IMG/VR virus record: IMGVR_UViG_3300021400_000012
Location: 32,001-96,000 of that record
Reading direction: 5' to 3' (one strand)
Source: a virus
Taxonomy: Duplodnaviria; Caudoviricetes
DNA length: 64,000 bases
Shown: piece by piece, positions 57,801 through 59,239 of the stretch
Position numbering within the stretch: position 1 is the first letter of the stretch
How the letters are laid out: the number at the start of each line of letters is the position of its first letter
The notes under the pieces: model-generated
Seen by the model: the letters and a program-made list of their open reading frames with translations, nothing else
Told to the model about the DNA's origin: nothing
Databases searched by the model: none
Program-made: the position numbers and the translations under genes

Positions 57801-57829
57801 TTGATTTTTTTATAAAATTATAATATTAT
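57801..57829 (+). promoter_or_regulatory. probable promoter for the suppressor-tRNA transcript
   Basis: TTGATT-17-TATTAT. Confidence 0.55.
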
Positions 57830-57867
57830 ATAAATATAAACTAAAAAGTTTACTTAGGAGTACAATA

Positions 57868-58167
57868 GTGATTATTGGTACAGAAAAATCTTTTGAAGCT
57901 TGGAAAGTCAAGCCGATTGTGATCAACAAGTGGGCAGATTTATATAATGATACTTGCATCAGGCTGCGGCGTGAGAAACTCACGTTTAAATAGATAACCC
58001 CAACAGAAATCTGTTGGCTTGCTTACGCAAGATATTTAGACACTTATGTCGCGCCTGATGATGTAGTATTTGATGCAGGAACTAATGAGCTATTGGCAAC
58101 TATTGCAAATAAATGGTTCGGCGATGATAGTATCCTGTTTAAAGGGCGCCCGCTATGTGCATAGTAA
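57868..58167 (+). CDS. hypothetical protein (99 aa, one internal TAG, ends TAG-TAA)
   Basis: AGGAG RBS, GTG start. Stops 5 nt before the suppressor tRNA. Confidence 0.6.
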
Positions 58168-58172
58168 ATAAT

Positions 58173-58243
58173 TGGGGTATCGTTAAATGGCATGACAGGA
58201 GGCTCTAACCCTCCCTTTGTGGGTTCGAATCCTACTACCCCAG
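58173..58243 (+). tRNA. amber suppressor tRNA-Gln (anticodon CUA)
   Basis: Acceptor TGGGGTA/TACCCCA with G73. Anticodon arm GGAGG-CT[CTA]AC-CCTCC. T-arm GTGGG-TTCGAAT-CCTAC. Confidence 0.93.
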
Positions 58244-58255
58244 TATGAGGTATCA

Positions 58256-59239
58256 ATGGAACAATTTGGATATATTTATAAAATTATAAATGATATAAAT
58301 GATAAAGTGTATGTTGGCGAAACAACTAGATCTTTAGAAGATCGTTTTTCAGAGCATTGTTTTGAAAAAAGATCAACGTCTAGAATTCATAAGGCCATTC
58401 AAGAGCTAGGCTGGCAGCATTTTAAAATTGTTGAAATTGAAAAGGTTCCGTTATCTCAAATTTTTGAACGAGAAACTTATTGGGTTCAATATTATAATTC
58501 ATATAAAAATGGTTATAATGGTACCCCTGATGGACAGAGTATAAAATTTCATGAACATACTCGATGGTATAATAGTGTTCATATAATTGAGCCTAATTTA
58601 TTTTTTGATAGCGCTGAAGCTATGGCGCGCGAATTACACAATTTAACTTCTTGGTCTTTTCGTTTTTGCAACGATAAAATAAAACAAAGCTTAAATGAAA
58701 ATAAAGATTTTCTTGGTTATCATTTAGAGTATGTTAAAATATATGAAAATGAAATATCAAGTATAGAAGATCGAGAAAATTGGATTAAAATTTTAAATAT
58801 ACAATTTGCAGGAAAACGAATTTATTGCGAAAAATTAAATAAAGAATTTAATACTGTAGGTGAAGCAGCAAAGTATTTATTAGAGAATGGATATTATATT
58901 GGGCAGTCAAAAATTCCAATTCAATCTATAGTAACTACAATTAGTCGGCAGCTCAAAGAGCCAGAGAGTGTTTTGTCTAGCATCTCTGGGAATTTAGTGT
59001 TTGAGCAGCTTCCAGGCTCAACAAAAAATAAAGGTTCTCAAACGCCATGGCAAAGTCAAAAAGTTCATTGTAATGAATTAAATATGGATTTTGATTCTCA
59101 AACTGAGGCCGCGCGTTATATGATTGAAAAAGGATATTGGAGCGGTATTAAATTAAAAACTGGTAAATTAAGACTTAGCGATATTATAAATGGTATTTTT
59201 CCAAATTATAAAGGCTATAGTTTTAAAAGAATAGAATGA
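58256..59239 (+). CDS. free-standing GIY-YIG homing-type endonuclease with repeated C-terminal DNA-binding modules (327 aa, no TAG)
   Basis: GYIYKI.N.INDKVYVG.T...RF.EH, RE.YW...YNS...GYN, and three F.S..EAA-type repeats. GAGG RBS. Confidence 0.82.
   Translation: MEQFGYIYKIINDINDKVYVGETTRSLEDRFSEHCFEKRSTSRIHKAIQELGWQHFKIVEIEKVPLSQIFERETYWVQYYNSYKNGYNGTPDGQSIKFHEHTRWYNSVHIIEPNLFFDSAEAMARELHNLTSWSFRFCNDKIKQSLNENKDFLGYHLEYVKIYENEISSIEDRENWIKILNIQFAGKRIYCEKLNKEFNTVGEAAKYLLENGYYIGQSKIPIQSIVTTISRQLKEPESVLSSISGNLVFEQLPGSTKNKGSQTPWQSQKVHCNELNMDFDSQTEAARYMIEKGYWSGIKLKTGKLRLSDIINGIFPNYKGYSFKRIE

Follow-up and report, generated by a model that had tools for sequence, protein, structure and literature searches.

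The DNA analysed here, referred to as the window, is a 64,000-nucleotide (nt) stretch of the IMG/VR virus record IMGVR_UViG_3300021400_000012 and corresponds to positions 32001-96000 in a phage genome of 127,574 bp. It contains a gene for a predicted amber-suppressor transfer RNA (tRNA) with the anticodon CUA, followed on the same strand by a gene for a free-standing GIY-YIG homing-type endonuclease, and the two genes probably constitute a mobile module in which a suppressor tRNA-Gln(CUA) is paired with an endonuclease of the I-TevI/Seg type. The genome is complete (36.8 % G+C, with a 108-bp end overlap) and carries 23 tRNA genes, one of which is a tRNA(CUA). Coverage by long open reading frames (ORFs) rises from 0.63 to 0.87 once TAG is read as sense, and about one in four glutamine-type codons is TAG. 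None of these TAG codons falls in the replication block (8020-28587), whereas the structural genes contain many. Glutamine is the top residue opposite the phage TAG codons in relatives (55 of about 220 positions), followed by arginine, glutamate and asparagine with 21 to 23 positions each. By its predicted coding, the phage is a code-15 (TAG = Gln) phage like those of Borges et al. (10.1101/2021.08.26.457843) and Yutin et al. (PMC7886860), which likewise encode a tRNA(CUA) and are rich in TAG in late genes and devoid of it in replication genes.

The tRNA(CUA) gene occupies positions 58173-58243 on the plus strand according to Rfam (52.3 bits) and 58172-58244 according to ARAGORN, and CCA is not encoded. 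The identity set of bacterial tRNA-Gln for E. coli GlnRS comprises a weak 1-72 pair, G2-C71, G3-C70, G10, G73 and U35. As read from the sequence, the acceptor stem is of the Gln type (U1-A72, G2-C71 and G3-C70, with the discriminator G73), and the molecule fits this bacterial-type set and is a predicted amber-suppressor tRNA-Gln.

The endonuclease gene (58256-59239, plus strand, 327 amino acids (aa)) starts 12 nt after the tRNA discriminator at 58243, the distance reported by the first-pass annotation, and 11 nt after the ARAGORN end at 58244; the start is at 58256 and not at 58257, the earlier position having been one base off. The 12-nt spacer (58244-58255) holds a putative ribosome-binding site for the nuclease (GAGG, 58247-58250), and the corresponding spacers of relatives, mostly 2 to 30 nt long, each contain a GGAG- or GAGG-like motif. 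The TGA stop codon overlaps the ATG of the next ORF as ATGA. A codon count confirmed that the 16 glutamine codons of the nuclease gene (11 CAA and 5 CAG) include no TAG while the ORFs on either side contain two and one, and the probability of finding no TAG among 16 such codons is 0.004, given a local TAG share of 0.29. Among the glutamine-rich ORFs of the genome 13 of 49 are free of TAG, mainly in the replication block, so that freedom from TAG is a class property and is not unique to the nuclease. The further suggestion, that such a gene works in either code, is weakened by the nuclease family, in which about 18 of 23 distinct loci are TAG-free and 5 contain one or two TAG codons; many other genes of the phage are TAG-free as well.

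The protein matched the Pfam GIY-YIG domain (PF01541, expect value (E) = 1.9e-10, residues 5-88), the PHROG homing endonucleases, and the catalytic domain of I-TevI by sequence (1LN0/1MK0, E = 3e-6). An AlphaFold2 model (predicted local distance difference test (pLDDT) 85.8) resembled the I-TevI catalytic domain (1MK0/1LN0) with template modelling scores of 0.76 to 0.79, and assigns residues 1-95 to the catalytic domain and predicts three beta-beta-alpha repeats after it (residues 107-148, 188-234 and 270-311, pLDDT >80). The C-terminal repeats gave only weak fold matches to small DNA-binding modules (8b6e, I-HmuI), and a Pfam search of the nuclease returned no NUMOD match. In an alignment of 23 homologues Y19, G21, R25 and R30 were invariant, Y8, E73 and N88 were nearly so, and the protein was conserved across its full length. 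With invariant GIY-YIG motifs, a modelled I-TevI fold and full-length conservation, the nuclease looks intact. An intron-borne nuclease was rejected, as Rfam found no intron RNA. A second GIY-YIG ORF is present in the window (50630-51595, minus strand, 321 aa) with its GIY-YIG domain at the C-terminus (Pfam E = 1.8e-6); unlike the tRNA-linked nuclease gene it contains in-frame TAG codons, five in number, and a UvrD-like helicase gene follows shortly after it.

Linkage of the nuclease family to tRNA(CUA)

A homologue search over 5.8 billion proteins returned full-length matches at 44 to 98 % identity, and in all ten of the homologue contigs that could be read a tRNA(CUA) lay directly upstream, at a gap of 2 to 30 nt. 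After deduplication about 23 distinct phage loci were obtained, with nucleases 38 to 98 % identical, and the nuclease gene in every one of them abutted a tRNA(CUA) of a single lineage with a characteristic D-arm, designated lineage A. The nuclease was downstream of the tRNA by 2 to 107 nt in 20 of these loci and upstream by 0 to 11 nt in three. Among 79 IMG/VR loci of other GIY-YIG nucleases, which served as a control, a tRNA was found no more than 150 nt upstream in eight, with anticodons for Lys, Leu, Thr, Glu, Gln and others, and CUA in none. The linkage of the nuclease family to tRNA(CUA) is therefore strict, and the idea that the adjacency is a coincidence, the nuclease being just one of the many homing endonuclease genes in phage tRNA arrays, is scarcely credible: this phage family does have many GIY-YIG genes, which are also frequent near tRNAs in general, but about 23 of 23 family loci against 0 of 79 other GIY-YIG loci contradict it, and the arrays offer 10 to 29 other tRNAs as possible neighbours. 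The two genes also co-diverge, distances between tRNAs being correlated with distances between nucleases (Mantel r = 0.49, p = 2e-4).

The linkage was also read in the reverse direction, with the lineage-A tRNA as query against IMG/VR and metagenomes and without use of the nuclease. The IMG/VR scan yielded seven loci, five with an adjacent nuclease and two without (L124 and L127, which have the same tRNA sequence), and the metagenome scan yielded 23 loci, of which 18 could be judged, 15 with an adjacent nuclease (10 downstream and 5 immediately upstream) and three without. No consistent difference from which a cut site might be predicted was found between the sequences of nuclease-linked and nuclease-free tRNAs. 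In L127 (1439-2839) and L124 (458-1858) a 1.4-kb stretch separates the nuclease-free lineage-A tRNA(CUA) from a tRNA-Gln(UUG) and contains no credible ORF in either code, nothing recognised by Rfam and no trace of the nuclease; a decayed nuclease in this gap of L127 was rejected, there being no ORF, tblastn or Rfam match. Searches of public phage records with the locus (blastn and tblastn) returned no close relative, only tRNA and N-terminal GIY-YIG matches, and neither the exact 35-nt tRNA pattern nor close nuclease relatives were matched in the corresponding search of IMG/VR. A 17-nt anticodon-arm pattern was present in 27 IMG/VR contigs, mostly from phages of about 100 kb, which have another tRNA(CUA) body and no family nuclease; they were rejected as nuclease-less alleles of the window tRNA.

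An alignment of 18 lineage-A members showed compensatory changes at 17 of 20 base pairs with none broken, a preserved cloverleaf and an invariant CUCUAA loop. Members of its subgroup II have C2-G71/C3-G70 in place of G2-C71/G3-C70. A second lineage, designated B, carries an extra arm of about 20 nt in the variable region (L073:17241-17328, minus strand, in the related phage G001, and L150:3502-3592, minus strand), and its D- and anticodon arms match those of a normal-length tRNA(CUA) (L025:732-806). The long extra arm had prompted the possibility that the 88-nt tRNA(CUA) of G001 is a suppressor of the Ser, Leu or Tyr type and that TAG has another meaning, which was rejected since its homologue in L025 is of normal length; the residues opposite the in-frame stops of G001, which favour Gln or TAG (14 of 31), also count against that type. 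L150 has the extra-arm tRNA(CUA) and one of lineage A arranged in tandem. In phages of about 175 kb, two tRNA(CUA) genes that differ from each other form a tandem pair with 5 nt between them (L095:7260-7410, minus strand; L099:370-520, plus strand), and in L095 the pair is followed some 200 nt downstream by a short GIY-YIG gene from a different family. The contig L145 carries a 252-aa truncated member of the nuclease family and, besides a tRNA(CUA), a tRNA identified by ARAGORN with the ochre-suppressor anticodon UUA (region of 8177, minus strand).

Other GIY-YIG subfamilies in phage tRNA arrays likewise begin 25 to 45 nt behind a co-oriented tRNA, with the partner isotypes Lys, Leu, Thr, Leu, Glu and Gln in L157, L160, L168, L169, L172 and L217, respectively (the nuclease match begins near 3001 in each). 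Such arrangements suggest that lineage-specific pairings of nucleases and tRNAs may be general.

Probable joint transfer and related phages

The contig L077 shares the gene order of the window, and in the flanks its proteins are 55 to 81 % identical and its DNA about 68 % identical. A sliding identity profile and alignments delimited a tract of near-identity between the two at 58173-59285 of the plus strand (end approximate), which takes in the tRNA, the nuclease gene and about 50 nt beyond. The tRNAs are identical at 71 of 71 positions and the nuclease genes at 959 of 984 nt (25 differences, 97.5 %), and third codon positions are 94.8 % identical in the nuclease gene, against 50 to 61 % in three flanking genes. 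The left end of the tract coincides with the first tRNA base, and on the right the identity falls off near 59285, some 50 nt inside the following ORF. An assembly chimera behind this mosaic was rejected because L078, an independent assembly from another data set, reproduces L077 across both junctions with a 99.97 % match. Two further mosaics were observed, L149 against L141 (flank 76 %, cassette 95 %) and L133 against L082 (flank 78 %, cassette 90 %). The tract in the window is the mark left by a recent joint transfer or by gene conversion.

The nuclease tree is at odds with the phage backbones. The contig L080 groups with the window, L077 and L079 (support 98/94), and none of its other ORFs has a homologue in the window phage genome, whereas L092 retains the synteny of the window at 29 to 47 % protein identity and yet falls outside this nuclease group. 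A separate group of cassette-carrying phages has a protein of about 500 aa with DUF2828/DUF7788 a few kb downstream of the tRNA array (L080:9532-11058; L086:9995-11500; L090:3798-5300; L082:12105-12969), and in L087 and L088 this gene is interrupted by other homing-endonuclease genes.

The tRNA and nuclease genes lie between two small ORFs. Upstream, a 99-aa ORF with two in-frame TAG codons (57868-58167, plus strand, from the code-15 ORF list) ends 5 nt before the tRNA; it has no Pfam or PHROG match, and homologues at 67 to 75 % identity occupy the same place in L077, L079 and G001. Downstream, a cysteine-rich 64-aa ORF with one TAG codon (59236-59430, plus strand), the ATG of which overlaps the nuclease stop, is conserved in relatives. 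In L077 an extra cysteine-rich ORF of 65 aa (5779-5976, plus strand) separates the 99-aa ORF from the suppressor tRNA; it is absent from the window, L079 and G001.

The comparison of recoded and standard-code relatives proposed in the first-pass annotation drew in part on a ligase gene 5 kb upstream as query, which retrieved 39 related IMG/VR contigs; three complete relatives were read fully. Two of these, G002 and G004, use the standard code and have neither a suppressor tRNA nor a family nuclease. The third, G001 (ligase 76 % identical), is complete and TAG-recoded, and its distance from the window phage is similar to that of L077 and L079; it carries a lineage-B tRNA at the same site and lacks the family nuclease genome-wide. 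Its sole tRNA(CUA) is separated by 5 nt from the end of the 99-aa ORF and by 2 nt from the start of the 64-aa ORF, in the place taken by the tRNA and nuclease in the window. Compared with G001, the window has about 990 bp more (58245-59235), namely the nuclease gene, inserted where the tRNA site meets the 64-aa ORF; the tRNA differs as well. Three states accordingly occur within one phage family: lineage A with the nuclease (window phage, L077, L079 and L092), lineage B alone (G001), and neither (standard-code phages). Through the linkage, the identity tract and the tree conflict, the comparison supports the joint mobility of tRNA and nuclease, and the more modest suggestion that the nuclease is simply a recent insertion is also correct, in that the insertion is precise with respect to G001.

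A proposed mobile module and its alternatives

The module would operate in the following manner. The spacer of 12 nt leaves no space for a promoter, so the nuclease is presumably transcribed together with the tRNA, and it would be translated from the ribosome-binding site in the spacer. A promoter-like site in the gap upstream of the 99-aa ORF (TTGATT-17-TATTAT, 57801-57829, plus strand, 9 of 12 matches in a consensus scan) is a weak candidate for the start of a transcript covering the 99-aa ORF, the tRNA and the nuclease, such sites being no commoner than in shuffles of this AT-rich DNA. During co-infection the nuclease would cut the genome of a related nuclease-less phage in or beside the suppressor-tRNA locus, and repair from the nuclease-carrying genome would give the recipient a copy of both the nuclease and the neighbouring tRNA(CUA), by analogy with SegB of phage T4. 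In a TAG-recoded phage the sole suppressor tRNA gene is needed for translation of the late genes, which makes it a conserved and indispensable landing site, and conserved tRNA genes may serve as homology arms between otherwise diverged phages. It is expected from theory that homing endonucleases choose indispensable genes as targets.

The SegB precedent, cited correctly in the first-pass annotation, is that of a nuclease that drives the preferred inheritance of neighbouring T4 tRNA genes; inheritance of segB is close to 100 %, neighbouring recipient markers are lost, and the 27-bp SegB site includes a tRNA T-arm motif (PMC2330249). As in the window, SegB is free-standing, has a GIY-YIG domain, and its gene immediately follows a tRNA gene of the same orientation within an array (segB starts 41 nt after tRNA-Ile), and like the window nuclease it is absent from some close relatives. 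The two proteins differ in length (221 aa for SegB against 327 aa, with a distinct three-repeat C-terminal region, in the window), and a BLASTP alignment covers just 29 residues (48 % identity) at the GIY motif, so the window nuclease may work in the manner of SegB without being its orthologue. An enrichment of SegB-like genes next to phage tRNAs, without isotype preference, has been described (PMC13096335), whereas the window nuclease family is tied only to amber-suppressor tRNAs. With I-TevI, from the T4 td gene, the nuclease shares the catalytic domain by sequence and fold (about 30 % identity) and perhaps a modular organisation of an N-terminal nuclease and a putative C-terminal DNA-binding part, but I-TevI is intron-encoded, while the window gene is not in an intron, and its DNA-binding domain is unmatched by the C-terminal domain of the window nuclease.

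Several observations weigh against a jointly mobile cassette and leave that part of the first-pass proposal only partially upheld: linkage, the identity tract and the tree conflict speak for it, while recoded G001 keeps a suppressor tRNA without the nuclease. Lineage-A tRNAs without the nuclease also exist (L124/L127, L136, L139 and L150). The linkage could partly be identity by descent from one old insertion, and the three loci with the nuclease upstream may derive from just one or two rearrangements. No standard-code phage with the cassette was found among the phages compared, and the short flanks of most carrier contigs are too crude to settle their code. Since tRNAs evolve slowly, the identity at 71 of 71 positions is by itself no proof that the tRNA lies inside the transferred tract; L079, which is at a backbone distance like that of L077, differs from the window at about 4 to 5 of 71 tRNA positions and has a nuclease 72 % identical, and as this indicates the differences expected without transfer, the absence of any difference from L077 is best explained by a tRNA inside the tract.

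The strongest alternative, judged unlikely, holds that the tRNA(CUA) gene is the recognition site or landing pad of the nuclease and not its cargo, so that only phages already bearing a suppressor are invaded and their tRNA allele is replaced. A nuclease found on either side of the tRNA is what a fixed tRNA gene would give, the close carriers all appear to be recoded, both genes are missing from the standard-code relatives, other GIY-YIG subfamilies sit behind other tRNA isotypes, and the T-arm motif within the SegB site is in line with it. What argues for the movement of whole tRNA genes is, first, that G001 has a non-orthologous suppressor at the very site where the window has lineage A and the nuclease, which implies that the whole tRNA was exchanged at least once, and second, that L080 shares only the cassette with the window phage, on an unrelated backbone. 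It is still less probable that the nuclease has been domesticated and is kept for the benefit of the phage, by amplification of the suppressor-tRNA segment or exclusion of competitors, with a mostly vertical linkage. Full-length conservation down to 45 % identity with no decayed copy except that in L145, the seamless operon placement with overlapping stop and start codons, and the promotion by SegB of segmental amplification of tRNA genes (PMC13096335) would all suit such a role; vertical descent, however, cannot yield 95 % third-position identity beside flanks of 50 to 61 %, nor a nuclease tree in conflict with the backbones, and the single tRNA(CUA) of the window genome gives no sign of tandem amplification. 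A mobile module of suppressor tRNA and nuclease is therefore preferred.

A further step, that the cassette carries the key determinant of TAG-to-Gln reading across lineages, including into standard-code phages that share only tRNA-array homology and in which TAG would then accumulate, is possible and rather doubtful. As to the claim that a genetic code spreads horizontally, no transfer into a standard-code phage was seen, and the spread of the code itself is for that reason offered as a hypothesis.

The association of SegB-like nucleases with tRNAs is already known, and what is new here is the tie to a suppressor tRNA; no report was found in the literature that ties a homing endonuclease to suppressor tRNAs, to cassette-like transfer or to the spread of recoding. 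Stop-codon recoding arose many times, in unrelated phage clades. If the module operates as proposed, the pair would be self-propelled and, in mixed infections, would outpace Mendelian inheritance. It would also constitute a third route for the origin of a phage suppressor tRNA, beyond the published routes of anticodon point mutation and bacterial capture (PMC7886860). The SegB-tRNA picture is refined in that a single tRNA, one that the recoded phage cannot do without, is the specific partner of at least one nuclease lineage. The linkage suggests a possible route by which an altered genetic code may spread between phages.

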